A stretch of 64,000 nucleotides of DNA. It comes from an uncultured Nocardioides sp. Lineage in GTDB: Bacteria > Actinomycetota > Actinomycetes > Propionibacteriales > Nocardioidaceae. The translations under genes were made by a program, and so were the position numbers. Positions 6,468 to 59,948 of this stretch are shown here, piece by piece; the stretch's first letter is position 1, and each line of letters opens with the position of its first letter. The stretch is taken from NCBI GenBank assembly GCA_947488515.1, contig CANKZF010000002.1:406294-470293 (forward strand), written 5' to 3'. The notes beneath the pieces were generated by a model that was not told where the DNA came from, did not search any database, and worked only from the letters and a program-made list of their open reading frames with translations.

Positions 6468-6506
6468 GGCCGCGACCCTACGGCGTACGACCGGGGACGC
6501 GGCCGG

Positions 6507-7784
6507 TCAGGTCGCCGAGCCGTGCCGTGCGAGGTAGCGCTCGGCGGCCCGGGCCGACGGGCCCATGGTGAGCGTGGAGATCGCCACGATGGCTGCGATC
6601 GTGATCCACCCGAACGACCCGTGCTCCATCGCCAGCCACGTGTAGAGCGCGGGCGCCCACACCGAGCCGAGGGTGCCGCCGATGTGGGCGGCGCCCTGGT
6701 ACTCCGCGCGCTGGTCGGCGTCGGTCAGGTCCGACATGAAGCCCCAGTGGCCGGCCGACTGGAAGAGCTCGGCGCCGGTCACCGTGACGTGACCGAGCCA
6801 GACCAGCGCGATCGTGAGCCAGCCGATCGTGTCGTGGGTGACGAGCACGATGGCGCAGGACAGGACGAAGAAGCCGGACGAGATGTACGACGCCCGCAGC
6901 GACCGCGCGACGGAGTCGACGCCGCGTGCAGCGGCGACCTGGAGCAGCACCGCCATGACGGTGTTGGTGGCGAAGAGCCACGCGAGCAGCACGCGGGGGG
7001 CGTCGGTCTCCTCCACGAGCCACAGCGGGATCACGATGTTGAGCAGCACCTGGTTGGTGCCGAGCACGCCGTCGCCCGTCATCAGGGCGAGGAACGGCCG
7101 GTTCTTCAGCGCACGCGGCTTGATCACCTCGTCGTCGGTGGGTCTCGGGGCCTTCGCGGGCGGGTCGGGCAGCCGCGTGATCCAGTACGTGTTCGCGAGC
7201 AGGATGGCGCCGGTGAGGAGCGGCACGGCGCGCACGACGGCGTCGCTGTTGGTCGCCAGTGCGAGGCCGCCGATGAGGGCGCCGACGGTGAACCCGATGT
7301 TGAGCGCGGCCCGCATGAAGGCCTGCGACTGGACGCGCTCCTCGCGGGTGAAGATGTCGATCGTGTAGGCACCGCGGCCGCTCCAGCCGGCCTGGCTGAC
7401 CACCTCGAGCACGACCATCATCGCGAGGTAGGCGGCGAAGCCGTGGATCATCGGCCACACGAGGTAGAGCAGGGCGGTGAGGCCGGCGCCGATCGCCCAC
7501 ATGCGTCTGGTGCCGACGCGGTCGGCGAGCTTGCCCGCCGGCACCGCGAAGAAGAACGACACGACGCCGGCGACGGTGAGGCCGATGCCGACCTGGGCGG
7601 CCGAGAGGCCCACGATCTGGGTGAAGAAGACCGCGGAGCCGGTGATGAACGTGCCTTCGCCGACCGCGAAGAGGATCGACTGGACCGACAGCGACCGTGC
7701 GAGCGGCGACGGGGGGAGCTGCCGCTGCCACCAGGACTGCGCCCCTGGCTCGCGCCGCGTCTCGGTACCGTCCATCGTGCTCAT
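6507..7784 (-). CDS. MFS transporter (paralog of 2075-3427)
   Basis: C-terminal 425 aa of track ORF 6507-8732, starting MSTMDGTETRREPG at ATG 7784. Hydrophobic with multiple TM segments, and collinear with the first MFS. Confidence 0.8.
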   Translation of the reverse strand: MSTMDGTETRREPGAQSWWQRQLPPSPLARSLSVQSILFAVGEGTFITGSAVFFTQIVGLSAAQVGIGLTVAGVVSFFFAVPAGKLADRVGTRRMWAIGAGLTALLYLVWPMIHGFAAYLAMMVVLEVVSQAGWSGRGAYTIDIFTREERVQSQAFMRAALNIGFTVGALIGGLALATNSDAVVRAVPLLTGAILLANTYWITRLPDPPAKAPRPTDDEVIKPRALKNRPFLALMTGDGVLGTNQVLLNIVIPLWLVEETDAPRVLLAWLFATNTVMAVLLQVAAARGVDSVARSLRASYISSGFFVLSCAIVLVTHDTIGWLTIALVWLGHVTVTGAELFQSAGHWGFMSDLTDADQRAEYQGAAHIGGTLGSVWAPALYTWLAMEHGSFGWITIAAIVAISTLTMGPSARAAERYLARHGSAT

Positions 7785-18946: not shown

Positions 18947-19636
18947 GTGGCCCGCGCTGACCTGGACAAGCAACCGACCGACGTACGTCGCATGTTCGAC
19001 ACCGTGGCCAAGCGCTACGACCTCACCAACGACCTCATGACGGCCGGCATCCAGCGCACTTGGCGCCGGGCGATGGTCGAGGCCGTCGCACCGCAGCGCG
19101 GCGACCTGGTCCTCGACCTCGCGGCCGGCACCGGGTGCTCGAGCGAGCCCTTCGGTGCCCACGCGGCCACCGCCGTGCCGTGCGACTTCTCCGTCGGCAT
19201 GCTCCAGCAGGGCAAGAAGGACCGGCCCTCGCTGCCGTTCGTCGCCGGCGACGGCACCCGGCTGCCGTTCCTGGACGACACCTTCGACGCGGTGACGATC
19301 TCCTACGGGCTGCGCAACTTCGTCGACCCGGTCGCGGGGCTGAGGGAGATGCTCCGCGTCACGCGCCCGGGCGGTCGCCTCGTCGTGTGCGAGTTCAGCA
19401 CGCCCACCAACGGCGCGCTGCGCACCGTCTACCTCGACGGCTTCATGCAGGCCCTGCCCCGGATCGCCTCGCTCACCGCGAGCGCGGCCGACGCCTACGT
19501 CTACCTCGCGGAGTCGATCCGTGCCTGGCCCGACCAGGAAGGGCTCGCCGCGATGGTCGCCGAGGCCGGTTGGCAGCGTCCCGAGTGGCGCAACCTCACG
19601 GGCGGCATCGTCGCCCTGCACCGCGCCACCGCCTGA
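18947..19636 (+). CDS. menG: Demethylmenaquinone methyltransferase
   Basis: 229 aa, [32 protein letters not shown] motif VLDLAAGTG, and ISYGLRNF. UbiE/MenG family next to the men and nuo genes. Confidence 0.9.
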
Positions 19637-19646
19637 CCACCGCAAT

Positions 19647-19682
19647 GCGTATTTAGGTGACGTCAGCGTTGCCTAAATGCGC
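19647..19682 (+). terminator. AT-rich hairpin just after menG (terminator or operator upstream of nuo)
   Basis: GCGTATTTAGG / CCTAAATGCGC form an 11-bp stem with one G-U pair. The 14-nt loop contains the palindrome TGACGTCA. Starts 11 nt after the menG stop. No U-tract. Confidence 0.35.
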
Positions 19683-19836
19683 AGGTCAGCGCGGCATTGG
19701 CCGCTTCCGAATGGTCCGCACCCCGACGTGACGCACGCCGCACCGGAGTCCTAGACTGTGGCCCGCGCCACTCGTGAAGCCGTTCACAAAGTCACATGCC
19801 CGTCTGGGCGGGCGCAGGTCCACCGGAAGGGAAGCG

Positions 19837-20196
19837 ATGGAGCTCTACACGCCGATCCTGGCGCTGGCACTCATCGCGACGGGCTTCGCGGTCTTCTCCG
19901 TGATCATGAGCGCCGTCGTGGGTCCCAAGCGCTACAACCGGGCCAAGCTCGACTCCTACGAGTGCGGCATCGAGCCGACGCCGCAGCCCGTGGGCGGCGG
20001 CAGGATCCCGGTGAAGTACTTCATCACCGCGATGCTCTTCATCGTCTTCGACATCGAGATCATCTTCCTGTACCCGTGGGCCGTCCACTTCGACCAGATG
20101 GCCCTCTTCGGCCTCGTCGAGATGGTCCTCTTCATCGCAACTGTGTTCGTGGCCTACGCCTACGTGTGGCGCCGCGGCGGACTGGACTGGGACTGA
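19837..20196 (+). CDS. nuoA: NADH-quinone oxidoreductase subunit A
   Basis: MELYTPILALALIATGFAV...YECGIEP...FDIEIIFLYPWA. Start chosen at ATG 19837 after GGAAGGGAAG. Confidence 0.9.
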   Translation: MELYTPILALALIATGFAVFSVIMSAVVGPKRYNRAKLDSYECGIEPTPQPVGGGRIPVKYFITAMLFIVFDIEIIFLYPWAVHFDQMALFGLVEMVLFIATVFVAYAYVWRRGGLDWD

Positions 20197-20282
20197 CCAG
20201 CCATGAGTGAGCGAAGCGAGCGATCAATCCAGCACAGCTGCCGCCGGGCCCCGCGGCAGCCCGGAGCGAAGCGAGGACTGTC
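20197..20282 (-). repeat. nuo junction repeat element, inverted or diverged copy (nuoA/nuoB spacer)
   Basis: On the minus strand it carries the family core CGCTTCGCTC twice and a GGGGCCCGG centre inside the palindrome CTGCCGC...GCGGCAG. This orientation is opposite to the other four copies. Confidence 0.55.
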
Positions 20283-20837
20283 GTGGGTATAGAAGAGAAG
20301 CTGCCGAGCGGCGTCCTGCTGACGACCGTCGAGGGCGTCGCGGGCTACATGCGCAAGGCGTCGTTCTGGCCCGCCACCTTCGGCCTGGCCTGCTGCGCCA
20401 TCGAGATGATGACCACCGGCGGCCCCAAGTACGACCTCGCCCGCTTCGGCATGGAGGTCTTCCGCGCCAGCCCGCGTCAGGCCGACCTGATGATCGTCGC
20501 CGGCCGGGTGAGCCAGAAGATGGCCCCGGTCCTGCGCCAGATCTACGACCAGATGCCCGAGCCCAAGTGGGTCCTCGCGATGGGTGTGTGCGCCTCGTCG
20601 GGCGGCATGTTCAACAACTACGCGGTCGTCCAGGGCGTCGACCACGTCGTGCCCGTCGACATGTACCTCCCCGGCTGCCCGCCGCGCCCGGAGATGCTCA
20701 TCGACGCGATCCTCAAGCTGCACGACCAGGTCCAGCAGACCAAGCTGGGCGCCAACCGTCGTGACGAGGTCGCCGAGCTCGAGACCGCCGCCCTGCGCGC
20801 GCTGCCCACCTCGGAGATGAAGGGCCTGCTGCGATGA
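20283..20837 (+). CDS. nuoB: NADH-quinone oxidoreductase subunit B
   Basis: [17 protein letters not shown]...[11 protein letters not shown]...GCPPRPE (N2 cluster cysteines). Confidence 0.95.
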
Positions 20838-21685
20838 GCGACAAGCCAGACGAGAAGCACGCCGGCAAGGCCCAGGACGAGTCGGACGACAAGACGGACA
20901 AGAACGAGGCGGCGCGTCCCGCCGAGGAGCGCAACCTCGAGAAGGCCAAGTCCGAGACCGGCACCGGCAGCGGCGTCGAGCAGCCCGCGCCCGAGCAGTC
21001 GCCGGAGAACCTCCCCGCACCGACCGGGGAGGTGCACGCGGTCGGCGAGCGCCGCGGCATGTTCGGCGTCAGCGGCACCGGCGACACCTCCGGCTACGGC
21101 GGCCTCGTCAGCGCGAAGGTCTTCCCGTCCCCGTCGCAGAAGCCCTACGGCGGCTGGTTCGACGACGTGGCGGGCGCGCTGGAGGCGCGGCTCGAGGCCA
21201 CCGACCTCACCTCGGCGATCGAGAGCGTCGTGGTGCACCGCGGCGAGATCACCTTCCACGTCCGCCGCGAGGACCTGCCCTTCGTGGCGCAGATGCTGCG
21301 TGACGACGAGGCGCTGCGCTTCGAGCTCTGCTCCGGTGTCAGCGGTGTCCACTACCCCGACGACCACGGTCGCGAGCTGCACGCCGTCTACCACCTGACG
21401 TCGATGACCCACAACCGCCTGATCCGCGTCGAGGTCACCGCACCGGACAGCGACCCCCACCTGCCGAGCCTGGTGAGCATCTACCCGACGCTCGACTGGC
21501 ACGAGCGCGAGACGTACGACATGTTCGGGCTGATCTTCGACGGTCACCCCGCTCTGACCCGGGTGCTCATGCCGGACGACTGGCCGGGCCACCCGCAGCG
21601 CAAGGACTACCCCCTCGGCGGCATCCCCGTGGAGTACAAGGGTGGGTCCATCCCTCCGCCGGACCAGCGCAGGAGCTACAACTGA
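20834..21685 (+). CDS. nuoC: NADH-quinone oxidoreductase subunit C (with a charged low-complexity N-terminal extension)
   Basis: ATGA overlap with nuoB. Conserved part runs from [20 protein letters not shown] to [20 protein letters not shown]. Confidence 0.9.
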
Positions 21686-21773
21686 TGGCACCCCACGACG
21701 TTCTTCGTCTCCTTCGCTTCGCTCCCCCGCCGAACAAAGGGGCGGGGACCCCGCCCCTTGGGAAGGGTCTGTC
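21686..21773 (+). repeat. nuo junction repeat element (nuoC/nuoD spacer) with a bridging mini-ORF 21685-21777
   Basis: CACCCCACGACGTTCTTCGTCTCCTTCGCTTCGCTCCCCCGCCGAACAAAGGGGCGGGGACCCCG.... A mini-frame runs from ATG 21685 (overlapping the nuoC TGA) to TGA 21775-21777 (overlapping the nuoD ATG 21774). Confidence 0.8.
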
Positions 21774-23114
21774 ATGACGACCGAACAGGACTTCTACGCC
21801 GCGCCCGGCGACACCAGCCAGGGCAAGGTCTTCACCGTCACCGGCCAGGACTGGGACTCGATCACGCAGAGCATCGGCGAGTCCGCCGAGGAGCGGGTCG
21901 TGGTCAACATGGGCCCGCAGCACCCGTCGACCCACGGGGTGCTCCGCCTCATCCTGGAGCTCGAGGGCGAGACGGTCACCGAGGCCCGCTGCGGCATCGG
22001 CTACCTGCACACGGGCATCGAGAAGAACATGGAGTACCGCTCCTGGGTGCAGGGCACGACGTTCTGCACCCGCATGGACTACCTCTCCCCGTTCTTCAAC
22101 GAGGCGACCTACGCGCTCGGCGTCGAGCGGCTGCTCGACATCGAGGACGACGTCCCGGAGAAGGCGCAGGTCATGCGGGTGCTCCTCATGGAGCTCAACC
22201 GGATGTCCTCCCACCTGGTCGCCATCGCGACCGGCGGGATGGAGATCGGCGCCCTGACCGTCATGACCATCGGCTTCCGCGAGCGTGAGCTCGTGCTCGA
22301 CCTGTTCGAGCTGATCACCGGCCTCCGGATGAACCACGCGTTCATCCGTCCCGGCGGCGTCGCCCAGGACCTGCCGCCCGGCGCGCTCGACGAGATCCGC
22401 GACTTCATCGCCCTGATGAGGAAGCGGCTGCCGGAGTACGCCGCCCTCTGCAACGCCAACCCGATCTTCAAGGGCCGTCTCGAGGGCGTCGGCCACCTCG
22501 ACCTCGCCGGGTGCATCGCGCTCGGGCTCACCGGTCCGGTGCTCCGCTCCACTGGCTACGCCTGGGACCTGCGCAAGACCCAGCCCTACTGCGGCTACGA
22601 GGACTACGACTTCGAGGTCCAGACCTGGGACACCGCCGACTCCTACGGCCGGTTCCGCATCCGACTCAACGAGATGTGGGAGTCGCTCAAGATCGTCGAG
22701 CAGGCCGCCGACCGCCTCGCCGGCCTCGAGGGCGCGCCCGTGATGGTGGGCGACAAGAAGATCGCGTGGCCCAGCCAGCTCGCGATCGGCAGCGACGGCA
22801 TGGGCAACAGCCTCGACCACATCCGCCACATCATGGGCGAGTCGATGGAGGCACTGATCCACCACTTCAAGCTGGTCACCGAGGGCTTCCGCGTCCCGGC
22901 CGGCCAGGCCTACGTCCCGATCGAGTCGCCCCGCGGCGAGCTGGGCGCCCACGTCGTCTCCGACGGCGGCACGCGTCCCTTCCGTGCGCACTTCCGCGAC
23001 CCGTCGTTCACCAACCTGCAGGCGACGAGCGTGATGAGCGAGGGCGGCATGGTCGCCGACGTCATCGTCGCCATCGCCTCGATCGACCCCGTCATGGGAG
23101 GAGTCGACCGATGA
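21774..23114 (+). CDS. nuoD: NADH-quinone oxidoreductase subunit D
   Basis: MTTEQDFY...[22 protein letters not shown]...; C-terminal [16 protein letters not shown]. Confidence 0.95.
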
Positions 23115-23184
23115 GTCACCCCACGAGCTTCTCGTCCTCCTCCGCTCCGCTCCTCCGCCCGACGACTTCGAGGGGACCCCGACG
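23115..23184 (+). repeat. nuo junction repeat element (nuoD/nuoE spacer) with a bridging mini-ORF 23111-23188
   Basis: CACCCCACGAGCTTCTCGTCCTCCTCCGCTCCGCTCCTCCGCCCGACGACTTCGAGGGGACCCCGA. Mini-[28 protein letters not shown] starts in ATGA at the nuoD stop and ends in ATGA at the nuoE start. CGATGAG is duplicated at both ends. Confidence 0.85.
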
Positions 23185-23907
23185 ATGAGCCACCAGCCCA
23201 ACGGGGCCGACGGCCTCGAGCGCGCCGGCCTGGGCGAGAAGACCTGGGCGGAGATGCGCGAGATCGCAGACCGCTACCCCGAGAAGCGCTCCGGCCTGCT
23301 GCCGATGCTGCACCTGGTGCAGTCGGTCGAGGGCCGGATCACGCCCGAGGGCATCGAGGCGTGCGCGGAGATCCTCGGGATCAGCGCCGCCGAGGTCAAC
23401 GGGGTCGCGACGTTCTACACGATGTACAAGCGCAAGCCGGTCGGCGACTACCACGTCGGCGTCTGCACCAACACGCTGTGCGCGGTCATGGGCGGCGACC
23501 TGATCTTCGAGCGGCTCAAGGACCACCTCGACGTCGGCAACGACGAGACCACCGAGGACGGCAAGATCACCCTCGAGCACGTCGAGTGCAACGCGGCCTG
23601 CGACTACGCCCCGGTGATGATGGTCAACTGGGAGTTCATGGACAACCAGACGCCCGAGTCGGCCGTCCAGGTCGTCGACGACCTGCGCGCCGGCCGGGAG
23701 GTCCACTCGACCCGCGGTCCGCGGCTGTGCACCTGGCGCGAGGCCGAGCGCGTGCTCGCCGGCTTCCCCGACGACCGCGCCGACGAGGGGCCGGCCGCCG
23801 GCCCCGCCTCGCTGGCCGGCCTGGCCGTCGCCCGCGAGAAGGGCTGGACGGCGGGCGCCGACAGGTCAGCCACGGAGTCCTCGGGAGCCAAGGGAGAGAG
23901 CAAGTGA
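23185..23907 (+). CDS. nuoE: NADH-quinone oxidoreductase subunit E
   Basis: 240 aa, RSGLLPMLHLVQ...VGVCTNTLCAVMGG...ECNAACDYAPVMMVN (2Fe-2S ligands). Confidence 0.95.
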   Translation: MSHQPNGADGLERAGLGEKTWAEMREIADRYPEKRSGLLPMLHLVQSVEGRITPEGIEACAEILGISAAEVNGVATFYTMYKRKPVGDYHVGVCTNTLCAVMGGDLIFERLKDHLDVGNDETTEDGKITLEHVECNAACDYAPVMMVNWEFMDNQTPESAVQVVDDLRAGREVHSTRGPRLCTWREAERVLAGFPDDRADEGPAAGPASLAGLAVAREKGWTAGADRSATESSGAKGESK

Positions 23908-25214
23908 CGGACACCCTGACCCCGGTCCTCACCGACAACTGGGACGCCGACCGCGCCTGGACGTTGGCGTCGTACGAGGAGCGCGGTGGCTACGCCGCCC
24001 TCGACAAGGCGTTCGCGATGACGCCCGACGCCGTGATCGACACCGTCAAGGACTCCGGTCTCCGCGGCCGCGGTGGCGCCGGCTTCCCGACGGGCATGAA
24101 GTGGGGCTTCATCCCGCAGGACAACCCGAGGCCGAAGTACCTCGTCGTCAACGCCGACGAGTCCGAGCCCGGGACGTGCAAGGACATCCCGCTGATGATG
24201 GCCAGCCCCCACACGCTGGTCGAGGGCGTCATCGTCAGCTCCTACGCCATCCGCGCCAACACCGCGTTCATCTACGTGCGCGGCGAGGTCCTCCACGTCA
24301 TCCGCCGCCTGCAGCGCGCGGTGCAGGAGGCCTACCTGGCCGGCCACCTCGGCAAGAACATCCACGGCTCGGGCTACGACCTCGACCTCATCGTGCACGC
24401 AGGTGCCGGCGCCTACATCTGCGGCGAGGAGACGGCCCTGCTCGAGGGCCTCGAGGGTCGCCGCGGCCAGCCGCGCCTGCGGCCGCCGTTCCCCGCCGTC
24501 GCCGGCCTCTACGCCAGCCCGACGGTGATCAACAACGTCGAGTCGATCGCGTCGGTGCCGAGCATCATCACCAACGGCGCCGCCTGGTTCGCCGGGATGG
24601 GCACCGAGAAGTCCAACGGCTTCGGCATCTTCAGCCTGTCGGGTCACGTGACGAACCCGGGCCAGTACGAGGCGCCGCTGGGCATCACCCTGCGTGAGCT
24701 CATCGACCTCGCCGGCGGGATGCGCGAGGGTCACGAGCTGAAGTTCTGGACCCCCGGCGGGTCGAGCACCCCGCTCCTGACGCCGGAGCACCTCGACGTG
24801 CCGCTCGACTTCGAGTCCGTCGGCGCTGCCGGCTCCATGCTGGGCACGCGCGCCCTGCAGCTCTTCGACGAGACCACCTGCGTGGTCCGCGCTGTGCTGC
24901 GGTGGACCGAGTTCTACAAGCACGAGTCCTGCGGCAAGTGCACCCCGTGCCGCGAGGGCACGTGGTGGCTGACGCAGACGATGGCCCGCCTCGAGAAGGG
25001 CCAGGGGGACGAGGGCGACCTCGACCTGCTGCTCGACCAGTGCGACAACATCCTGGGCCGCTCGTTCTGCGCCCTCGGCGACGGCGCGACCAGCCCCATC
25101 TCGAGCTCCATCCAGCACTTCCGCGACGAGTACCTCGCACACCTGACCCACGGCGGCTGCCCGTTCGACCCGGCCGCCTCGACCGCCTTCGCACCCGTGG
25201 GAGCCCCCGCATGA
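23904..25214 (+). CDS. nuoF: NADH-quinone oxidoreductase subunit F
   Basis: GTGA overlap with nuo[14 protein letters not shown] (FMN site), [27 protein letters not shown] (4Fe-4S). Confidence 0.95.
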
Positions 25215-27661
25215 GCACCACCGACAAGGCGCCCGAGAAGGTCGACACCGGCCTGGTCACCCTGACCATCGACGGCGTCCAGGTCAGCGTCCCGAAGGAC
25301 ACCCTGGTCATCCGCGCCGCCGAGCAGGTCGGGGTGCAGATCCCGCGCTTCTGCGACCACCCGCTGCTCGACCCGGTCGGCGCCTGCCGCCAGTGCCTGG
25401 TCGACATCCCCGACGCCGGCAACGGACGCGGCTTCCCCAAGCCGCAGGCCTCGTGCACCTTGCCGGTCGCGGAGGGTATGGTCGTCAACACCCAGGCGAC
25501 CAGCGAGGTCGCCGACAAGGCGCAGCAGGGCATCATGGAGTTCCTGCTCATCAACCACCCGCTCGACTGCCCGGTCTGCGACAAGGGCGGCGAGTGCCCC
25601 CTCCAGAACCAGGCCATGAGCAACGGCCGTGGCGAGAGCCGGTTCGCCGAGCGAGGCGGCATCAAGCGCACCTTCCCCAAGCCGATCAACATCTCCGCCC
25701 AGGTCCTGCTCGACCGCGAGCGCTGCGTGCTGTGCGCTCGCTGCACCCGCTTCTCCGAGCAGGTCGCCGGCGACCCCTTCATCGCCCTCGCCGAGCGTGG
25801 CGCGCTGCAGCAGGTCGCGATCTACGAGCGCGAGCCCTACGAGAGCTACTTCTCCGGCAACGCGATCCAGATCTGCCCGGTAGGTGCGCTCACGTCGGCC
25901 GACTACCGCTTCCGCTCGCGTCCCTTCGACCTCGTCTCCACGCCGGGTGTCGCCGAGCACGACGCCTGTGGTGCCGCGATCCGCGTGGACCACCGCCGCG
26001 GCAAGGTCATGCGGCGCCTCGCCGGCAACGACCCCGAGGTCAACGAGGAGTGGATCAGCGACAAGGACCGCTTCGCGTTCCGCTACGCCCAGGTCGCCGA
26101 CCGGATCACCTACCCGCAGGTCCGCGAGGACGGCGAGCTGCGCCCCGCGTCGTGGACCGAGGCGTTCGCCGTCGCCGCCCGCGGCCTCCGCGACGCCGGC
26201 GCTGCGGCCGTGCTCACCGGCGGCCGGCTCACCGCCGAGGACGCCTACGCCTACGCGAAGTTCGCCCGGGTCTCCCTCGGCACCAACGACATCGACTTCC
26301 GAGCCCGCCCGCACACCGCGGAGGAGGCGAGCTTCCTCGCCTCCCACGTCGCGCTGTCCGGTGACGTCACCTACGCCGACCTCGAGGCCGCGCCCGTCGT
26401 GGTGCTGCTCGGCCTCGAGCCCGAGGACGAGGCGGCCACGCTCTTCCTGCGGCTGCGCAAGGCCGCCCAGCGCGGTCGTACGCAGGTCGTGTCGGTGGCG
26501 TCCCACGCCTCGCGCGGACTGACGAAGATGAACGGCCGGCTCGTCCCGGCCGCTCCCGGCACCGAGGTCGAGGTGATCGGCTCCCTCAAGGACGCCGAGC
26601 ACGGCGTCACCAAGGACGCCGTCATCCTGGTCGGCGAGCGCCTGGCCCAGACGCACGGCGCGCTCAGCGCCGCCGCCGACCTCGCGGCCGGCACCGGTGC
26701 CCGCATCGCCTGGGTGCCGCGACGTGCGGGTGACCGCGGCGCGGTCGAGGCCGGCGCGCTGCCCAACCTGCTGCCCGGCGGACGTCCGCTCACCGAGGCG
26801 TCCGCGCGCGTCGACCTGGGCGCCGCGTGGGGTGCGGACACCCTCCCGGCCAAGGTCGGCCGTGACGGCAACGCGATCGTCGCGGCGCTGGCCAAGGGTG
26901 ACCTCGGCGGCCTCGTCGTCGGTGGGGTCGACCCCGACGACACCGCCGACCCGGCCGCGTTCCGCGCCGCCCTCGACGCCGCCCGCTTCGTCGTCAGCCT
27001 CGAGCTGCGCGAGACCGACGTGACCCGCGTGGCCGACGTCGTCCTGCCGGTGGCCCCGGTCGCCGACAAGGCCGGCACCTTCGTCACGTGGGACGGACGT
27101 GCGAGGTCCTTCGACGCGGTGTTCGCCAACCCGGCCTCGCTGCCCGACCTGCGGGTCCTGTCGGGCATCGCCGACGAGCTCGCCGCGATCGGTCACGGAC
27201 GCCCGCTCGGCTTCCGCACGGTCGCGGAGGTGCGCGACGAGATGCAGTCTCTCGGCCCGTGGGACGGTGCGCGCCCGGCGCTCGACGCCGGCAAGGCGCC
27301 GAAGCCGGTCAAGGCGCCCAGGAAGGGCGAGACCGCCTTCGCCCTCGCCACCTGGAAGCAGCTCGTCGACCTCGGCTCGATGCAGGACGGCGAGGAGCAC
27401 CTGCGGGCCACCGCCCGCAGGCCGGTCGCCCGCGTCAGCCGCGCGTCGTACGAGTCCGTGCTCGGCATGCTCGAGGCACAGCCCGGCGGCGACCAGCTCG
27501 TCACGGTCACCGGTGACCGCGGCAGCGTGACGCTGCCCGTCGTGGTCGCCGACATGCCCGACGGCGTCGTCTGGGTCCCGGCCCGGTCCTTCGGCCGCGG
27601 TGTCCTCGCCGAGCTGGCCTCGCCCGGCAGCACGGTCACCCTGAAGGGAGCCACCTCATGA
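25211..27661 (+). CDS. nuoG: NADH-quinone oxidoreductase subunit G
   Basis: ATGA overlap with nuo[14 protein letters not shown]...[17 protein letters not shown]...[18 protein letters not shown], 816 aa. Confidence 0.95.
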
Positions 27662-29001
27662 TGCAGCTCGCTCCGCTGGCGGCGGACCTGCCCGACCCGG
27701 GTCTGGCCGCCTTCGGTCACGACCCGTGGTGGGTGATCCTGCTCAAGGCCGTGTTCATCTTCCTGATCCTGGTGCTGCTGACGCTGTTCAACATCTGGTT
27801 CGAGCGCCGCGTGGTCGCCCGGATGCAGCACCGCGTCGGCCCCAACGTTCACGGCCCCTTCGGCCTCCTGCAGTCGCTCGCCGACGGCGTGAAGCTCGCG
27901 CTCAAGGAGGACATCGTCCCCAAGGCGGCCGACAAGGTCGTCTTCCTCATCGCGCCGGTCATCGCCGTCGTTCCCGCCTTCGTCACGTGGGCGGTCATCC
28001 CGCTCGGCCCCGTGGTCAACTTCTTCGGGTACGAGACCCCGCTGCAGCTCACCGACATGCCGGTGGCGGTGCTCTTCATGCTCGCCATCGCCTCGATCGG
28101 CATCTACGGCATCGTCCTCGGCGGCTGGTCCTCCGGCTCGACGTACTCCCTGTTGGGGGGCCTGCGATCGAGCGCGCAGATGATCTCCTACGAGGTCGCG
28201 ATGGGCCTCGCGCTCGTGGCGGTCTTCCTCTACGCCGGGTCGATGTCGACGTCGGAGATCGTCGCCGCGCAGGACCGGCTGTGGTTCGGCCTGATCCTGC
28301 TGCCGTCGTTCGTCATCTACGTGATCTCGATGGTCGGCGAGACCAACCGTGCCCCCTTCGACCTCCCCGAGGCCGAGGGCGAGCTGGTCGGCGGCTTCCA
28401 CACCGAGTACTCCAGCCTGAAGTTCGCGCTGTTCTTCCTGGCCGAGTACATCAACCTCGCGACCGTGTCGGCCATCGCCACGACGCTGTTCCTGGGCGGC
28501 TGGGCGGCACCGTGGGGCATCGAGAACGTGTGGGAGGGCGCCAACAGCGGCTACTGGCCGCTGCTCTGGTTCTTCGGCAAGGTCTTCTGCTTCATCTTCC
28601 TGTTCGTCTGGCTGCGCGGCTCGCTGCCCCGCATGCGCTACGACCAGTTCATGGCGCTGGGCTGGAAGGTCCTGATCCCCGTCTCGCTGGCCTGGATCGT
28701 GGCCGTCGCGACCATCCGTGTCATCTCGCTCGAGGGCAACATCAACCGCACCTACCTCGTCGCCGCGATCGCCGTCCTGCTCGTCCTCACCGTGGCGCTG
28801 ATGTTCGTCGGTGACCGGGGCGGCAAGTCCGACGAGGAGAGCGCGGTCGAGGCGAGCGACGAGCCGCACGACGCGTTCGCCGGCGGCTTCCCCGTGCCGC
28901 CGATGCCCGCGGGTGGCGCAGTGCGCGGCGGCGCCGCGCCGCTGACGTTCGCCCAGAGCCGCACCACCGTCACCGCTTCAGCGGAGGAGAACCATGAGTG
29001 A
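27658..29001 (+). CDS. nuoH: NADH-quinone oxidoreductase subunit H
   Basis: 447-aa polytopic protein, [15 protein letters not shown]...[26 protein letters not shown]. Confidence 0.95.
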
Positions 29002-29551
29002 GTCCCCTCAGTCCGAGCAGGGGTCCAAGGGCATCAAGGAGAGCCTCTGGGACCCGATCGCCGGGTTCGGCGTCACCTTCAGGACGATGTTCAAGAAGGT
29101 CGTCACCGAGCAGTACCCGTTCGAGAAGCTCCCGACGGCACCGCGGTTCCACGGCCGCCACCAGCTCAACCGCTGGCCCGACGGCCTGGAGAAGTGCATC
29201 GGCTGCGAGCTGTGCGCGTGGGCCTGCCCGGCCGACGCCATCTACGTGGAGGGCGCGTCCAACGTCGACCTCCCGGACGGCTCGGGACGCTTCAGCCCCG
29301 GCGAGCGCTACGGCCGCGTCTACCAGATCAACTACCTGCGCTGCATCCTGTGCGGGCTCTGCATCGAGGCGTGCCCGACCCGCGCGCTCACGATGACCAA
29401 CGAGTACGAGCTGGCCGACAACAACCGCGCCGACCTCATCTACGAGAAGTCCGACCTGCTGGCCCCGCTGCTGCCGGGCATGGAGGAGCCGCCGCACGCG
29501 ATGCGGCTCGGCGACGACGAGGGCGACTACTACCGGGGGGCCACGAGATGA
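28994..29551 (+). CDS. nuoI: NADH-quinone oxidoreductase subunit I
   Basis: Two 4Fe-4S ferredoxin motifs, [12 protein letters not shown] and [12 protein letters not shown]. Confidence 0.95.
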
Positions 29552-29618
29552 ACCACCCCACGAAGTTCTCGTCCTCCTCCGCTGCGCTCCTCCGCACGAC
29601 AACTCCGAGGGGACCCCG
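29552..29618 (+). repeat. nuo junction repeat element (nuoI/nuoJ spacer) with a bridging mini-ORF 29548-29622
   Basis: CACCCCACGAAGTTCTCGTCCTCCTCCGCTGCGCTCCTCCGCACGACAACTCCGAGGGGACCCCGA. Mini-[27 protein letters not shown] runs from ATGA at the nuoI stop to ATGA at the nuoJ start. GATGA is duplicated at both ends. Confidence 0.85.
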
Positions 29619-30446
29619 ATGACGTTCTGGATCCTGGCCCCGATCATGGTGGCCGCCGCGCTGGGCATCCTCTTCGTCCGCAAGGCCGTGCACGCCGCGC
29701 TGCTGCTCGCCGTGGTGATGATCAGCCTGGCGTTCCTCTACGCCGTGCTCGACGCCCCGTTCCTCTTCGCGGTGCAGATCATCGTCTACACCGGCGCGAT
29801 CCTCATGCTGTTCCTCTTCGTGATGATGCTGATCGGCGTCGACGCGACCGACTCCGTCGTGGAGACGATCCGCGGCCAGCGCGTGATGGCGGTCGTCCTC
29901 GGCCTGCTCTTCGGCGTCGTGCTGGTCGTCGGCATCAGCCAGGTCACGCTCGGCACGGTGGTCGGGCTCGACGAGGCCAACGCCGGCGGCAACGTCCCGG
30001 CGATCGCCAACATCCTGTTCTCCCGCTACGTGTTCGCCTTCGAGGCGACCAGCGCCCTGCTCATCACCGCCGCGCTCGGCGCGATGGTGCTCGCCCACCG
30101 CGAGCGCCTGACCCCGAAGCAGACGCAGGCCGACCAGGCCGCCCAGCGCATGCGCGACTACGCCGAGCACGGCAAGCACCTCGGCCCGCTGCCCTCGCCG
30201 GGCGTCTACGCCCGCCACAACGCGGTGGACACCCCGGCCCTGCTGCCCGACGGCACCGCCGCCGAGTCGTCGGTCTCCCGGGTGCTCGCCGCCCGCGGCA
30301 CGGTCCGCTCGGCTCCCGCGCTCGCCGACGACATCGACGACGTACGCCGCCAGATCGCCGGTCTGGACGGGAAGAGCCCTGCCGCGATGCCCGAGACCTC
30401 GGGCAAGGCCGGCGCGCCCGCCGCGACGGAAGAGGACGTGAAGTGA
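29619..30446 (+). CDS. nuoJ: NADH-quinone oxidoreductase subunit J
   Basis: MTFWILAPIMVAAALGILFVRKAVHAALLLAVVMISLAFLY...; 275 aa with a hydrophilic C-terminal tail. Confidence 0.9.
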   Translation: MTFWILAPIMVAAALGILFVRKAVHAALLLAVVMISLAFLYAVLDAPFLFAVQIIVYTGAILMLFLFVMMLIGVDATDSVVETIRGQRVMAVVLGLLFGVVLVVGISQVTLGTVVGLDEANAGGNVPAIANILFSRYVFAFEATSALLITAALGAMVLAHRERLTPKQTQADQAAQRMRDYAEHGKHLGPLPSPGVYARHNAVDTPALLPDGTAAESSVSRVLAARGTVRSAPALADDIDDVRRQIAGLDGKSPAAMPETSGKAGAPAATEEDVK

Positions 30447-30545
30447 CTGAGTACGTAGTCGCCACCCCAGCAACTTCTTCGCTCCTCCGCTTCGCTCCTC
30501 CGCGAACAACTCGCCGGGGACCCCGACGCTCGATGAGGTCGAACC
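30447..30545 (+). repeat. nuo junction repeat element (nuoJ/nuoK spacer) flanked by a 16-nt duplication
   Basis: CACCCCAGCAACTTCTTCGCTCCTCCGCTTCGCTCCTCCGCGAACAACTCGCCGGGGACCCCGA. TGACTGAGTACGTAGT occurs at 30444-30459 and again at 30547-30562. Mini-ORF 30443-30553. Confidence 0.85.
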
Positions 30546-30839
30546 TTGACTGAGTACGTAGTTCTTTCGGCGATCCTGTTCACGATCGGCTGCGTGGGTG
30601 TCCTCACGCGCCGCAACGCCATCGTGGTGTTCATGTGCGTCGAGCTGATGCTGAACGCCTGCAACCTGGCGTTCGTGGCCTTCGCCCGGCAGCACGGCAA
30701 CCTCGACGGCCAGATCACCGCCTTCTTCGTGATGGTGGTGGCTGCTGCCGAGGTCGTGATCGGGCTCGCGATCATCATGACCATCTTCCGCACCCGACGC
30801 TCGGCCTCGGTCGACGACGCCAGCCTGCTGAAGTACTGA
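30546..30839 (+). CDS. nuoK: NADH-quinone oxidoreductase subunit K (TTG start)
   Basis: [38 protein letters not shown]..., 97 aa. The only in-frame start after the element is TTG 30546. Confidence 0.9.
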
Positions 30840-30849
30840 GGGAGCGCTC

Positions 30850-32844
30850 GTGAACCTGTTGTCCCACTCAGTCCTCGCGGCCGGCCTGCCGATGGCCGAG
30901 GAGGGCGCCCACGCGCCCGTGATCGCGCCCGACATGGGCGCGGGCGGTGTGTTCGACCTGCTCTGGCTGGTCATCGCGCTCCCGGTGCTCGGCGCGGTCC
31001 TGCTGCTCGGCGTCGCGCCGTTCCTGCCGTCCTCGCTCAGGGCCGTCGCCGACAAGCACGGCCACCTCCTCGGCACCGCGATGGCGGCGCTGTCCTTCGT
31101 GCTCAGCCTCGTGCTGTTCCTAGCGCTGGTGGGCCGCGACGCCGAGTCGCGACAGGTCGGCCAGCAGCTGTGGACGTGGTTCGAGACCGGCTCGCTGACG
31201 GTCGGCATGGACCTGCTCTACGACCAGCTGGCCGCGCTGTTCCTGCTCCTCATCACCGGCGTCGGGACGCTGATCCACGTCTACGCCATCGGCTACATGG
31301 AGCACGACCCGCGTCGCCGCCGCTTCTTCGGCTACCTCAACCTGTTCGTCGCGGCGATGCTCACGCTGATCCTGTCGGCCAACTTCGTGGGCCTGTTCCT
31401 GGGCTGGGAGGGCGTCGGCCTGGCGTCGTACCTGCTCATCGGCTTCTGGCAGCACAAGCCGTCGGCCGCTGCGGCCGCCAAGAAGGCGTTCGTCATCAAC
31501 CGTGTCGGTGACATCGGCCTGTCGCTGGCGATCGCGCTGATGTTCGCCACCTTCGGCACCGCCGACTTCGGCGCCGTGAGCGAGCTCGCGGGGGAGGCGA
31601 GCCAGGGCACGCTCAACGCCCTCGGCCTGCTGCTCCTGCTCGGTGCGTGCGGCAAGTCCGCGCAGGTGCCGCTGCAGGCGTGGCTCCTCGACGCGATGGA
31701 GGGCCCGACCCCGGTCTCGGCCCTCATCCACGCCGCGACGATGGTCACGGCCGGCGTCTACCTCGTCGTCCGGTCCAACTTCATCTTCGATCTCACGCCC
31801 GTCGCGCAGACCGCGGTCGTCGTCGTCGCCACCGTCACGCTCCTCTGGGGTGCGATCCTCGGCTGCGCCAAGGACGACATCAAGAAGGCGCTGGCCGGCT
31901 CGACGATGAGCCAGATCGGCTACATGATGCTCGCCGCCGGCCTCGGCCCGGTGGGCTACCCGTTCGCGATCTTCCACCTGCTGACGCACGGCTTCTTCAA
32001 GGCCAACATGTTCCTCGGCGCCGGTTCGGTCATGCACGGGATGAACGACGACGTCGACATGCGTCATTACGGCGCGCTCAACAAGGCGATGCCGGTCACC
32101 TTCCTGACCTTTGCGATGGGCTACCTCGCGATCATCGGCTTCCCGGGGTTCTCCGGCTTCTGGTCCAAGGACCGGATCATCGAGACTGCGCTGGCCGAGA
32201 ACCTGATCATCGGCATCCTGGCGCTGATCGGTGCGGGCATCACCGGCTTCTACATGACCCGCCTCATGCTGATGACGTTCTTCGGCGAGAAGCGCTGGGA
32301 GAAGGACGTCCACCCGCACGAGTCGCCCAAGGTGATGACGGTCCCGCTGATCGTGCTGGCCGCGCTGTCGGTCCTCGGTGGCCTCCTGCTGTTCAACGAC
32401 TGGATCGTCACCTGGCTCGAGCCGGTGACCGGTCACGTCGAGCACCACGAGCCGCCGCTGCCGGCGATCGTGATCACGCTGATCATCACCGCCGTCGTCG
32501 CGATCGGCGTCGCCGCGGCCTGGTTCCTCGTGGGCAGGCGCGCGGTCCCGCGCGAGGCCCCGCAGGACGTGTCGTTCGCGACCCGCGCCGCTCGCGCCGA
32601 CCTCTACGGTGACGCAATCAACGACGCGGTCGTCGTACGCCCCGGAGCCGCGCTCGTCGGTGGTCTGGCCACCTTCGACCGCGTCGGCGTCGACGGCGTC
32701 GTCGAGGGTGGTTCGTCCGCCGTCGGCGGCCTGTCCACCACGATGCGTCGAGTCCAGAACGGCTTCGTCCGCTCCTACGCCCTGTCCCTCCTCGGTGGCG
32801 CCCTGCTGGTCGTCCTCGCTCTGCTGGCGGTGAACCTCGGATGA
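30850..32844 (+). CDS. nuoL: NADH-quinone oxidoreductase subunit L
   Basis: 664-aa antiporter-like subunit, [29 protein letters not shown]...[20 protein letters not shown]. Confidence 0.95.
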
Positions 32845-34328
32845 TCCTGACTGTCCTGATCCTGCTGCCGCTCGTCGGCGCCCTCGTCACGGCCTTCGTG
32901 CCGGCCGCGGTCGCCCGGCTGGTCGGCCTCGGCTTCGCCGCCGCGACCCTGGTCGCCGGCATCGTGGTCGCTGCGCAGTACAACGCCGGCGACGGCATGC
33001 AGCTCACCGAGACCCGCACGTGGATCGAGTCGCTCGGCGTCCACTACGCGCTCGGCGTCGACGGCCTCGGCCTGCTGATGGTCCTGCTCACGGTCGTCCT
33101 CGTGCCGATCGTGCTGCTGGCCGGCTGGCACGAGTCGGAGGCCCCGGGCAACAACGGCGCGAAGGCCTTCTTCGCCTGGACCCTGGCCCTCGAGGCGATG
33201 TCGCTGGCGGTCTTCACCGCCACCGACGTGCTGCTCTTCTACGTCGTGTTCGAGGCGACGCTGATCCCGGCCTACTTCCTGATCGGCGGCTTCGGTCGAG
33301 CCGGCCGGGGCCGTGCCGCGACCAAGTTCCTCATCTACCAGCTCGCCGGCGGGCTGATCATGCTCGCCTCGGTGATCGGGCTCTACGTCGTCTCCGCGAA
33401 CGCGGGCAACCCGAGCTTCCTGATCAGCGACCTCGCTGCGCTCGACATCGACGAGACCACGCAGCGCTGGCTGTTCGTCGGCTTCTTCATCGCCTTCGCG
33501 ATCAAGGCGCCGATGTTCCCGGTCCACACCTGGCTGGCCGACACGACGGAGAAGGCGACCACCGGCACCTCGGTCCTGCTGGTCTGCATCCTCGACAAGA
33601 TCGGCACGTTCGGCATGCTGCGGTTCTGCCTCGGACTGCTGCCCGACGCCTCGCAGTGGGCGACGCCGGTCGTGATCGTGCTCGCGCTCATCTCGATCAT
33701 CTACGGCGCGCTGGTCGCCATCGGGCAGGACGACGTCCTGCGCCTGATCGGTCTCACGTCGCTCTCGCACTTCGGCTTCATCGTGCTGGGCATCTTCGTG
33801 TTCAGCTCGAACGGCAGCTCCGGCGCGATCCTCTACATGGTCAACCACGGCATCGCGACGGCGCTGATGTTCCTCGTCGCCGGGTTCCTGATCCGTCGCA
33901 CCGGCACCGCGTCCATCCGTGAGATGGGCGGGGTGGAGAAGGCAGCCCCGCTCCTGGCCGGCTTCTTCCTCGTCGGTGGCCTCGCCGCGGCCGGCCTCCC
34001 CGGCCTGTCGCCGTTCGTCTCCGAGATGCTCGTCATCATCGCCGCGTTCGAGCACCACTGGCTGGCCGGCTCGGTCGCCGTCCTCGCGATCGTCCTCGCC
34101 GCGTTCTACGCGCTCTGGATGTACCAGCGGACGATGACCGGTCCCGATCGGGTCGGCATGGCGCCGGTGGCCGACCTCGATCGGCGTGAGGTGGGCATCC
34201 TCGCTCCGCTCCTGCTCGCGCTCCTGCTGTTCGGCTTCTACCCGATGCCGCTGCTCGACGTCATCAACCCGTTCGTCCACGAGTCGCTCGCGAGTGTGGG
34301 CATCGGCCAGGAGGGTGGTCCCCAGTGA
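32841..34328 (+). CDS. nuoM: NADH-quinone oxidoreductase subunit M
   Basis: 495-aa antiporter-like subunit, [21 protein letters not shown] overlap with nuoL. Confidence 0.95.
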
Positions 34329-35917
34329 CCGAGTTCGTGAAGCCCAGCGTCGAGTACTTCGAGCTCTGGCCGCTGCTGGCCGTCTTCGGTGTCGCCTGCC
34401 TCGGCGTCGTCGTGGAGGCGTTCCTCCCGCGCTCCATCCGCTACACCGCCCAGGTCGTGCTGGCCCTCGGTGGCCTCGTGCTCGCCCTCGTCGGCGTGGT
34501 GCTGGTCGCGCAGCGGGTCCAGACGTACGACGACGGCGCCGCGCGCGGCGTGCTCGCCGTCGGCGGGACGATCGCCGTCGACGGCCCGAGCCTCTTCATC
34601 TGGGGCCTGGTTCTCGCGCTGGCCATCGCCGGCGTGCTGCTCTTCGCCGAGCGGCACCTCGACGGCGGGGTGTCGGCGTTCGCCGGCCAGGCCGCCGCCG
34701 TGCCGGGCACGGACGCGGAGACCGCGTCGATCGCGGCCAACCGCGAGCACACCGAGGTCTACCCGCTGATGATGTTCGCGGTCTTCGGCATGATGCTCTT
34801 CCCGGCGGCCAACGACCTGCTGACGATGTTCGTCGGCCTCGAGGTCCTGTCGCTGCCGCTCTACCTGCTGAGCGGCCTCGCGCGCCGCCGCCGCCTGCTC
34901 AGCCAGGAGGCCGCACTCAAGTACTTCCTCCTCGGCGCGTTCTCCTCGGGCTTCTTCCTCTACGGCGCGGCCCTGCTCTACGGCTTCGCCGGCGCCCTGG
35001 ACTTCGCCTCGATCAACGAGGCGGTGCGCAACGACGTGGGCAGCCAGTCCCTGCTGCTCATCGGCACGGGCCTGCTCTCGGTCGGTCTGCTGTTCAAGGT
35101 CGGCGCCGTGCCGTTCCAGGCGTGGACGCCCGACGTCTACCAGGGCGCCCCGACCCCGGTCACCGCCTTCATGGCGGCCGGCACCAAGGTCGCGGCCTTC
35201 GGCGCGATCATGCGCCTGTTCTACGTCGCCCTCGGCGCGGACCGCTGGTCGTGGCAGCCGATGCTGTGGATCATCGCCGTGCTGTCGATGTTCGTCGGTG
35301 CCGTGCTGGCCATCACCCAGACCGACATCAAGCGCCTGCTGGCCTACTCGTCGGTCGCCCACACCGGCTTCATCCTCACCGGCGTCCTCGGCCTGCAGGC
35401 TGCCGACCAGCTGGCCGTCGGCGAGATCAGCTCGGTCCAGGCCGTGCTCTTCTACCTCGCGACCTACGGGTTCGCGACGATCGGCGCGTTCGCGGTGGTC
35501 AGCCTGGTCCGTGACGGCGCCGGTGAGACCACCGCGATCGACCGGTGGGCCGGCCTCGGCAAGGAGTCGCCGGTGGTGGCTGCGGTGTTCGCCTTCTTCC
35601 TGCTGGCGATGGCGGGCATCCCGCTCACGTCCGGCTTCGTGGGCAAGCTCGCAGTCTTCTCCGTGGCCCTCGCCGCGGGCGCATGGCCCGTCGTCGTGGC
35701 GGCCGTGATCGCGAGCATCATCGCGGCGTTCCTCTACGTCCGGGTCATCAAGGTCATGTACTTCGACAAGCCGATCGGCGACGGTCCGAGCGTGGCTTAC
35801 CCGTCCGTGCTCACCGCGACGACCATCGCCGTCGGTGCCGCGATCACCCTCGTCCTCGGCGTGCTGCCGGGGCCGGTGCTCGATCTCGCGGCCGTTGCGG
35901 GAGAATTCATCAGGTGA
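34325..35917 (+). CDS. nuoN: NADH-quinone oxidoreductase subunit N
   Basis: 530-aa antiporter-like subunit, KVGAVPFQAWTPDVYQGAPTPVTAFMAAGTK. GTGA overlap with nuoM. Confidence 0.95.
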   Translation: MTEFVKPSVEYFELWPLLAVFGVACLGVVVEAFLPRSIRYTAQVVLALGGLVLALVGVVLVAQRVQTYDDGAARGVLAVGGTIAVDGPSLFIWGLVLALAIAGVLLFAERHLDGGVSAFAGQAAAVPGTDAETASIAANREHTEVYPLMMFAVFGMMLFPAANDLLTMFVGLEVLSLPLYLLSGLARRRRLLSQEAALKYFLLGAFSSGFFLYGAALLYGFAGALDFASINEAVRNDVGSQSLLLIGTGLLSVGLLFKVGAVPFQAWTPDVYQGAPTPVTAFMAAGTKVAAFGAIMRLFYVALGADRWSWQPMLWIIAVLSMFVGAVLAITQTDIKRLLAYSSVAHTGFILTGVLGLQAADQLAVGEISSVQAVLFYLATYGFATIGAFAVVSLVRDGAGETTAIDRWAGLGKESPVVAAVFAFFLLAMAGIPLTSGFVGKLAVFSVALAAGAWPVVVAAVIASIIAAFLYVRVIKVMYFDKPIGDGPSVAYPSVLTATTIAVGAAITLVLGVLPGPVLDLAAVAGEFIR

Positions 35918-59932: not shown

Positions 59933-59948
59933 GGCGCCCGCTCTCGGG

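Follow-up and report, generated by a model that had tools for sequence, protein, structure and literature searches.

A probable genus-wide interspersed repeat with MIRU-type architecture at stop/start junctions of a Nocardioides nuo operon

A stretch of 64,000 nucleotides (nt) from an uncultured Nocardioides species (contig CANKZF010000002.1; hereafter the window, with ~71% GC over its whole length) contains a complete nuo operon, and four of the spacers between its genes are probably copies of an interspersed, non-autonomous repeat that occurs throughout the genus Nocardioides and in related Nocardioidaceae. This repeat has the architecture of mycobacterial interspersed repetitive units (MIRUs) and carries a relay reading frame that would lead ribosomes across each copy. 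Judged by this architecture, it appears to be a new family of MIRU-type repeats and not MIRU itself. The element sits on an NTGA start context (N, any base), is bordered by NTGA on both sides and points in the same direction as the following gene; its unit length leaves a remainder of two when divided by three (2 mod 3), and the frame that is used contains no stop codon.

The operon lies on the + strand and extends from nuoA (19837–20196) through nuoN (34325–35917). As an earlier note on this DNA had counted, five of its thirteen junctions carry long spacers (A/B 86, C/D 88, D/E 70, I/J 67 and J/K 99 nt), and the measured lengths agree; the remaining eight are tight, with overlaps of –4 or –8 or, at K/L, a 10-nt gap. 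The spacers at C/D, D/E, I/J and J/K are same-strand copies of one sequence, with elements of 65–88 nt at the following positions:

21686–21773, + strand: nuoC/D repeat copy; core 21687–21753; nhmmer E 4.6e-22; covariance model 76.2 bits
23115–23184, + strand: nuoD/E repeat copy; core 23115–23181; nhmmer E 7e-19; covariance model 74.4 bits
29552–29618, + strand: nuoI/J repeat copy; nhmmer E 3.8e-19; covariance model 88.9 bits
30460–30546, + strand: nuoJ/K insert, 87 nt between two 16-mers; core 30461–30525; nhmmer E 5e-20; covariance model 79.5 bits
30444–30459, + strand: first of two copies of TGACTGAGTACGTAGT, the 16-mer duplicated at the junction; second copy at 30547–30562

The same note had recognized four copies in one orientation, and both search methods agree with it. 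The nhmmer profile returned the four with E 4e-19 to 5e-22 and nothing else in the 64 kb below E 2, and the covariance model gave them 74–89 bits, with everything else in the window at or below 17.8 bits. A repeat-family search of the window groups three of the four (family D8). The copies at D/E and I/J differ somewhat more than the ~6 of 66 positions first estimated, namely at ~8 of 67 (88% identity). No Rfam family was found at E≤1 in a scan of positions 19500–31500. Clustering in the nuo operon is not significant within the window, where nuo provides ~10 of the ~15 tight junctions (p ~0.15). Could these spacers resemble each other by chance, being GC-rich and of low complexity? A window of 71% GC does offer many spurious repeats and open frames, but with E values of 1e-19 to 1e-22, no other match in the 64 kb and more than 100 full-length copies elsewhere, this explanation retains a negligible probability and was discarded.

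Further copies were collected with one genome per species, using a pattern built from the repeat core and its 3′ end, which yielded at least 118 stretches in loci of 8 kb. The columns covered by the pattern are invariant by construction and their constancy must be discounted as support; flanks, 5′ arm and gene context lay outside the pattern and are unselected. Among the matches listed, nhmmer confirms at least 116, representing at least ~109 distinct full-length copies in dozens of Nocardioides genomes. The hosts include at least 27 named Nocardioides isolates as well as Marmoricola and metagenome-assembled genomes (MAGs) of Nocardioidaceae. An alignment of the copies gave the consensus AnCACCCCACGACGTTCTTCGnCTCCCCCGCTnCGCTCCTCCGCCGAACAACnCCGCGGGGACCCCG, with a body of 57–64 nt and a unit of 65–74 nt across the family. 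Some genomes hold at least four to five copies, counted in the 8-kb loci only, and the copies precede many unrelated genes at dozens of different loci. The nuo operons make up 17 of the ~118 loci listed; their copies lie at B/C, C/D, D/E, F/G, I/J, J/K and L/M, and the occupancy of these junctions is patchy between species. Two-copy tandems occur at loci L041, L051, L095, L111 and L121, and tandem arrays among the copies found comprise only 2–3 units. No Mycobacterium is represented among the confirmed copies, which all come from Nocardioides, Marmoricola, Nocardioidaceae or MAG contigs resembling them, and no copies were found in viral contigs and plasmids.

The few pattern matches from Streptomyces, Planomonospora, Nonomuraea and other phyla either lacked a profile match or looked mis-binned. 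In two short MAG contigs, L049 (binned as Gemmatimonadales) and L094 (binned as Streptomyces), the occupied sites are orthologous to those of Nocardioides, and the nuoF/G region of L094 is 82% identical to the window; both are probably mis-binned or mislabelled. At four loci (L083 ~7072–7190, L112 4167–4268, L118 6017–6153 and L018 3579–3733) we observed composite copies, in which a full element lies inside the loop of another, with the layout ...CCGCAACGC / TTCACCCC...GACCCCGAAGC / GCTCCTCCG.... The composite is the same at different loci, including nuoL/M, and seems to propagate as one unit. Two sites outside nuo are occupied in several species, one in L034, L045, L053, L088 and L091 (after ...TTCAGGATGTGA), the other in L032, L049, L056 and L071 (after ...GAGGTTCTTCTGA). 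At both, the element directly follows the upstream stop, its 3′ end does not lie on a start codon and the downstream gene retains its own spacer and Shine-Dalgarno sequence.

The placement of the copies with respect to genes and reading frame is non-random. Coding strand and frame of the flanking genes were assigned from the pattern of GC at third codon positions, which left 98 evaluable copies. A co-oriented gene lies downstream of 94 of these and co-oriented genes lie on either side of 78; two copies are reversed. In 84 of the 94, the TGA of the bridging frame overlaps the downstream start as NTGA and the overlapped start lies in the downstream coding frame, for which the chance expectation is one third; four more overlaps are of the TGATG type. 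The starts overlapped in these 88 copies are ATG (69), GTG (15) and TTG (4). At the other end, the start of the bridging frame overlaps the upstream stop as NTGA in 54 of 80 copies, with three more of the TGATG type, and 51 of 78 copies show a tight overlap at both ends. Relative to the element itself, NTGA precedes the CCCC run by 7–10 nt in 88 of 109 copies, follows ACCCCG by 0–4 nt in 77 and adjoins both ends in 73. Since the 5′ NTGA is kept even without a co-oriented gene ending there, the preferred site is the NTGA start codon in general. The initial claim of insertion exactly at stop/start junctions is thereby narrowed: it describes ~58% of the copies, and the others occupy other starts, including those of the first genes of operons.

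The distance from NTGA to NTGA is 2 mod 3 in 67 of the 73 copies (71 nt in 42, 74 in 20, 65 in three and 68 in two), with a binomial p of 1.7e-25 that overstates the strength of the result, as the copies share ancestry and are not independent. At least 14 combinations of body, 5′ spacer and 3′ spacer length retain this phase. The element itself is read in three phases (34, 25 and 8 copies), with the flanking spacers compensating. Because all three phases are used and the end-to-end phase is kept, it is the relay frame that is conserved and not a peptide, just as the earlier note had proposed. An open bridging frame as such was rejected as evidence, because the composition of the copies leaves all three forward frames open in 89 of the 98. 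The real signal is the phase together with the overlap with stop and start codons.

The same data bear on the idea that the mini-open reading frames (mini-ORFs) are kept because they encode functional micropeptides. The D/E and I/J peptides are indeed similar, but the three phases yield unrelated peptides with only the end-to-end phase conserved, and L121 has this sequence as an in-frame fusion to the gene downstream, so that we consider this explanation very improbable. The L121 sequence is a tandem array at 6312–6500 with a period of 72 nt (0 mod 3), whose units would give a Pro/Ser-rich N-terminal extension and not a mini-ORF relay. Tandem copies follow the logic of the single ones: at L041 and L051 (nuoD/E), two 71-nt units give a chain of two mini-ORFs, with the stop of each lying on the ATG or GTG that follows, and at L111, where the period is 69 nt, a single longer ORF has a TGATG end on the nuoE start.

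In the window, a bridging frame had been noticed in every same-orientation copy, and all four could be located, with ends on or next to the neighboring stop and start codons:

21685–21777, + strand: C/D bridging mini-ORF, 30 codons; its ATG and the nuoC TGA have one base in common (TGATG)
23111–23188, + strand: D/E bridging mini-ORF, 25 codons; ATGA overlap at either end
29548–29622, + strand: I/J bridging mini-ORF, 24 codons; ATGA overlap at either end
30443–30553, + strand: J/K bridging mini-ORF, 36 codons; its start is the original nuoK GTG, in a GTGA overlap with the nuoJ stop

The C/D mini-ORF ends with a TGA that overlaps the nuoD ATG as ATGA, and a 20-nt 3′ tail of this copy brings GGGAAGGG before that ATG at 21774. 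Its translation agrees with the initial reading that the C/D element is used in another phase than those at D/E and I/J. The D/E mini-ORF has a native Shine-Dalgarno sequence, GGGAGGAG, within nuoD, 8–15 nt upstream. All three flanking duplications first reported are present, namely CGATGAG at D/E, GATGA at I/J and the 16-mer at J/K. The first TGACTGAGTACGTAGT copy consists of the nuoJ stop and the displaced original 5′ end of nuoK. As this 16-mer is duplicated around the insert, the J/K mini-ORF begins with the old nuoK N-terminus, VTEYVV, and it stops at a TGA 3 nt past the new nuoK TTG (30546). The 3′ tail of the insert closes with CCT, and the present nuoK start is a TTG formed at the element boundary.

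In this arrangement, the original start is displaced by the element while keeping its native Shine-Dalgarno sequence and, in many cases, its overlap with the upstream stop; it opens a frame of 21–36 codons, which ends at the TGA of the second NTGA, atop the real start codon. Ribosomes due to start the gene would then translate the relay frame and pass on by termination-reinitiation, a step that the 3′ GAGGGG or GCGGGG run of the element, 7–10 nt before the start, may aid. Expression and coupling would in this way outlast the insertion. Selection would purge copies that break the relay, and such purging would account for orientation and phase as well as for the abundance of copies in operons rich in tight junctions, such as nuo. 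We infer this translational relay from sequence statistics and from the published coupling at –4 spacing.

Orthologous sites without the element exist. The exact NuoI protein of the window is encoded on three metagenome contigs, L001, L002 and L003, while exact-protein searches of public assemblies with NuoJ, NuoE and NuoC gave no match. Of the three, L001 (a 190-kb ENA metagenome contig) shares 96–97% identity with the window over the length of the operon and is empty at all five junctions; L002 and L003 are empty at I/J, and occupancy in related species is patchy. In base-level alignments, the empty I/J site reads CCAC..GATGACGTTC, compared to GATGA–element–GATGACGTTC in the window, and the D/E site of L001 reads GACCGATGACC, compared to CGATGAG–element–CGATGAG. 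At C/D, the orthologous site of L001 reads TGATGAC. At J/K, the empty site is AGTGACCCAGTACGTAGTC; the window retains the original GTGA overlap and has TGACTGAGTACGTAGT on both sides of the insert.

The relatives of the individual copies bear on their age. The I/J copy has counterparts of 96–97% identity at the I/J junctions of L015 and L023 (N. alpinus), the nearest relative of the C/D copy is the C/D copy of L107 (90%), and the J/K copy has an orthologous copy in L082 (91%), whose 16-nt duplication has diverged. With same-junction copies as nearest relatives, several of the nuo insertions are probably old, and the empty alleles of L001 may represent precise losses rather than the ancestral state. 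A recent burst of transposition in this genome is no longer the simplest reading, as the nearest relatives of the copies are same-site copies elsewhere.

Several points weigh against a family of MIRU-type insertions. The window copies are closest to same-junction copies in other species, and the nearest relative lies within the same genome for only 11 of 57 copies. One has to assume either that the L001 lineage lost five copies precisely or that the same sites were hit repeatedly. The flanking duplications vary (3–7 nt, and 16 nt at J/K), unlike a target-site duplication of fixed length. No transposase or autonomous parent was found in ~950 kb around known copies, a weak test. The same DNA, equally weak as a test, held no isolated pair of arms flanking a gene and no parent element with the same ends. 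In favor of insertion, the flanking direct repeats are slightly longer than expected, with at least 7 nt at 19 copies compared to 9.5 in shuffled pairings; an equal first letter of the paired NTGAs is weak as proof of duplication (GTGA/GTGA in four copies versus ~2 expected).

Some of these observations would suit a spread by recombination without any dedicated enzyme, through tandem duplication, slippage or gene conversion at NTGA junctions, or through import with flanking DNA between strains. Tandem pairs, variable direct-repeat lengths including the 16-mer, a similarity that tracks the site and not the genome, and unusually divergent gene termini at the filled and empty sites of the window and L001 are in line with it. 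However, homology of 4–7 nt is very short for exchange between distant loci, the element keeps one orientation and one set of boundaries at dozens of unrelated loci, and its flanks are 96–97% identical to L001 up to the junctions. We therefore consider recombination alone unlikely and prefer insertion of a MIRU-type repeat. Between window and L001, the first and last 10–20 nt of the genes beside all five junctions show a divergence far above average, made up of both substitutions and indels (for example, MSHQPNGAD versus MTVTSQGAD in NuoE). This divergence could reflect relaxed constraint or scars of insertion and excision.

The repeat also has a conserved secondary structure. In alignment A2, columns 5–21 pair with columns 46–63 to a 17-bp stem, in which 79% of the cells are paired and 207 are compensatory, compared to 52 in shuffles and at most 39 when the partner was slid. 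In the I/J copy, the arms lie at 29556–29572 and 29596–29612. Three sense-strand positions are systematically unpaired (A.C, A.C and C.C), and both A.C mismatches are G.T on the antisense strand; outside these fixed mismatches, sense A.C was found 42 times versus 10 for sense G.T. The mean minimum free energy is –19.1 kcal/mol for the sense and –29.8 kcal/mol for the antisense strand (alifold, –11.8 versus –22.3), so the antisense strand folds ~10 kcal/mol better. Compared to its own shuffles, neither strand shows a signal of folding stability (sense RNA, z –1.2 to +1.0), and thus only the covariation and the strand asymmetry are informative.

The loop is nearly invariant, also in columns outside the search pattern. 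Its centre reads GCTnCGC, with n being T in 47, G in 38, C in 28 and A in no copy, which is GCGNAGC on the antisense strand. Only N varies freely in this apex, and its least stable variant (N = T) is absent. The I/J copy has GCTGCGC (29581–29587) and hence the antisense mini-hairpin GCGCAGC. GCGNAGC is an extraordinarily stable DNA mini-hairpin (Hirao; PMC13037366). From the covariation, the asymmetry and the apex we infer that selection acts on the folded antisense DNA strand. These antisense signals could instead reflect selection for a C-rich (50% C, 22% G), unstructured mRNA, which would count against a DNA hairpin. Within the loop of the J/K copy (30477–30503) there is an exact 13-nt tandem duplication of CTTCGCTCCTCCG (2.1 copies), and the loop of the family consensus is an imperfect direct repeat, CTCCCCCGCT / TCGCTCCTCCGC.

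A weaker part of the model concerns mobility. Spread and loss might proceed via a single-stranded DNA hairpin of the antisense strand, composed of the 17-bp covarying stem with its G.T wobbles and the GCGNAGC cap. Either a putative hairpin-recognizing enzyme would act on this structure, or replication would slip between the flanking NTGA repeats, which would also yield tandems and precise deletions. It is possible, and we put it forward tentatively, that the bottom-strand hairpin with its GCGNAGC cap serves as the substrate for insertion beside NTGA and for seamless excision and that the 2-mod-3 unit is invisible to translation, which would make the repeat a tractable model for start-codon-homing DNA. 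If this holds true and MIRUs share the design, the mechanism of MIRU mobility would become directly testable.

The conserved structure invites another interpretation, in which the element is not a tolerated parasite but a cis-acting module selected by the host. It could be a site in the mRNA or the DNA of long operons that tunes the stoichiometry of the subunits, affects how transcripts are processed or how stable they are, or binds a protein. Such a module would account for the same nuo junctions being held in several species. Same-site copies are 90–97% identical between species at ~88–90% identity of the flanking genes, the loop is nearly invariant while the stem covaries, and the 17 nuo loci among the ~118 listed also favor it. 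On the other hand, close relatives lack any copies and have seamlessly restored ORFs, junction occupancy is patchy, and copies stand upstream of many unrelated genes. Moreover, the sense RNA is no more stable than its shuffles, no Rfam family matches and the nuo clustering in the window is not significant. A host-selected module thus seems rather improbable to us, and the interspersed MIRU-type repeat with its relay frame remains the preferred reading.

The fifth long spacer, for which the core had been reported twice on the opposite strand, has no demonstrable place in the family:

20197–20282, + strand: nuoA/B spacer, a separate small insertion; not supported as a family member

The observation that its core GAGCGAAGCGAG occurs twice stands (20209–20220 and 20264–20275, around a hairpin of GCTGCCGC at 20237–20244 and GCGGCAGC at 20253–20260), but kinship with the family is not supported, as the scores are at noise level: E 4.2 on the minus strand with nhmmer, and 17.8 bits with a window-wide E of 0.17 for the covariance model. 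Part of the family match falls on the native nuoB start (CCCACGAC / GTGGGTAT), and L107 has this start too. An ORF at 20203–20292 spans the junction. The A/B junction of L001, without the insert, has an 11-nt spacer, and no second copy of the A/B spacer was found in ~950 kb of Nocardioides DNA. The spacer is best understood as ~31 nt of native sequence combined with a separate insertion of 55 nt that carries a 12-nt direct repeat and in which a 43-nt segment including the hairpin is bounded by the 12-nt GAGCGAAGCGAG.

In a metagenome scan, pairs of GAGCGAAGCGAG at a distance of 30–60 nt were present on at least 120 contigs with 28–74% GC (L122–L241), where the 12-mer usually loops between variable complementary stems of many unrelated tandem or dispersed repeats. 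Because it caps so many unrelated repeats, a shared 12-mer does not define a family; it looks like a widespread hairpin-cap module, of which we know no description. GAGCGAAGCGAG holds the DNA mini-hairpin GCGAAGC with possible tandem G.A pairs on either side. By its cap, the Nocardioides repeat may be linked to the repeats with GAGCGAAGCGAG loops in unrelated metagenome bacteria.

The window contains other repeats away from the nuo operon. A G-rich tandem repeat of 73 nt (59948–60219, 3.7 copies, 83% matches) sits between convergent genes that end near 59932 and 60304. At 4013–4192, where a crude gene map shows no gene, tandem repeats with units of 12 and 24 nt (GGCGTCTGGGTG and GGGGTGTCGGTG) are present in ~7 copies. 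The regions 2262–3397 and 6586–7715, ~4.3 kb apart, are 69–77% identical (repeat families D1, D2 and D13) and probably represent paralogs encoded on the minus strand.

To our knowledge, MIRUs are known from one genus and are used chiefly as typing markers. More than 100 copies from a second actinobacterial lineage open the rule for start-codon repeats (2 mod 3, NTGA at both ends, any phase) to statistics. Pairs of filled and empty junctions in an essential operon of 14 genes provide natural material for studies of termination-reinitiation, and the strand-asymmetric GCGNAGC hairpin is a lead on how such elements move. For genome annotation, the elements produce “intergenic” gaps of 65–100 nt and spurious small ORFs within operons, and predicted starts can shift, as for the nuoK TTG at the element boundary.

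Finally, the repeat can be compared with known systems. Like miniature inverted-repeat transposable elements (MITEs), it is small, non-coding and interspersed, with inverted-repeat ends, short flanking direct repeats and a polymorphism of empty and filled sites. Unlike in MITEs, its flanking repeat has no fixed length (3–7 nt, 16 nt at J/K), and no insertion sequence (IS) with the same ends was found in the ~950 kb. The arms of MITEs are conserved transposase sites, whereas those of the Nocardioides repeat form a covarying stem, and the near-absolute orientation and phase relative to the start codon are not a MITE property. A short imperfect palindrome with a covarying stem, apparently folded on one strand and with a conserved short sequence at the foot of the hairpin, is shared with repetitive extragenic palindromes and bacterial interspersed mosaic elements (REP/BIME), which are associated with REP-associated tyrosine transposases (RAYT), and with hairpin elements of the IS200/IS605 type (palindrome-associated transposable elements, PATEs). 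Members of the IS200/IS605 family insert beside a specific tetra- or pentanucleotide and excise seamlessly. Such excision would fit the precise empty sites, a comparison that is an analogy of mechanism only. In the ~950 kb around known copies, a weak test, no Y1/HUH transposase could be tied to the repeat. REPs are typically extragenic, past the ends of operons, and not phase-locked to start codons as the Nocardioides repeat is. The GCGNAGC mini-hairpin, in turn, is a structural motif and not a genetic element, and its suggested role in the repeat follows from the pattern of the apex.

The closest likeness is to MIRUs. In the searchable literature we found no MIRU-like family from Nocardioides or any other non-mycobacterial host, and MIRUs were the sole described start-codon repeat made harmless by a relay reading frame. 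A 2025 review describes them as seemingly mobile, inserting at start codons and with an internal ORF coupled at –4 spacing (PMC12548453, citing Supply 1997). They measure 40–100 bp, occur in 40–50 copies with empty and filled sites, are transcribed polycistronically and show direct repeats of four nucleotides, imperfect inverted repeats at their ends and inside, and ORF ends overlapping the neighboring genes (Delihas; PMC3184786). Units of 77 and 53 bp have been reported (PMC2453075, PMC4213456), and both lengths are 2 mod 3. The Nocardioides repeat differs in its host, Nocardioides and other Nocardioidaceae, and in its tandem arrays of only 2–3 units; the likeness described here is one of architecture. 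The stem covariation, the strand-asymmetric pairing and the GCGNAGC apex are features that we did not find stated for MIRUs. The resemblance noted at the outset extends to every architectural feature that could be compared with the MIRU descriptions (PMC12548453, PMC3184786): a short interspersed unit (65–88 nt here) within operons and co-oriented with the genes, insertion at the start codon, an internal ORF that overlaps the stop of the gene before it and the start of the gene after it (–4), direct repeats of four nucleotides, orthologous sites in both the empty and the filled state, imperfect terminal and internal GC-rich inverted repeats, tandem copies and a unit length of 2 mod 3 (71, 74, 65 and 68 nt here).

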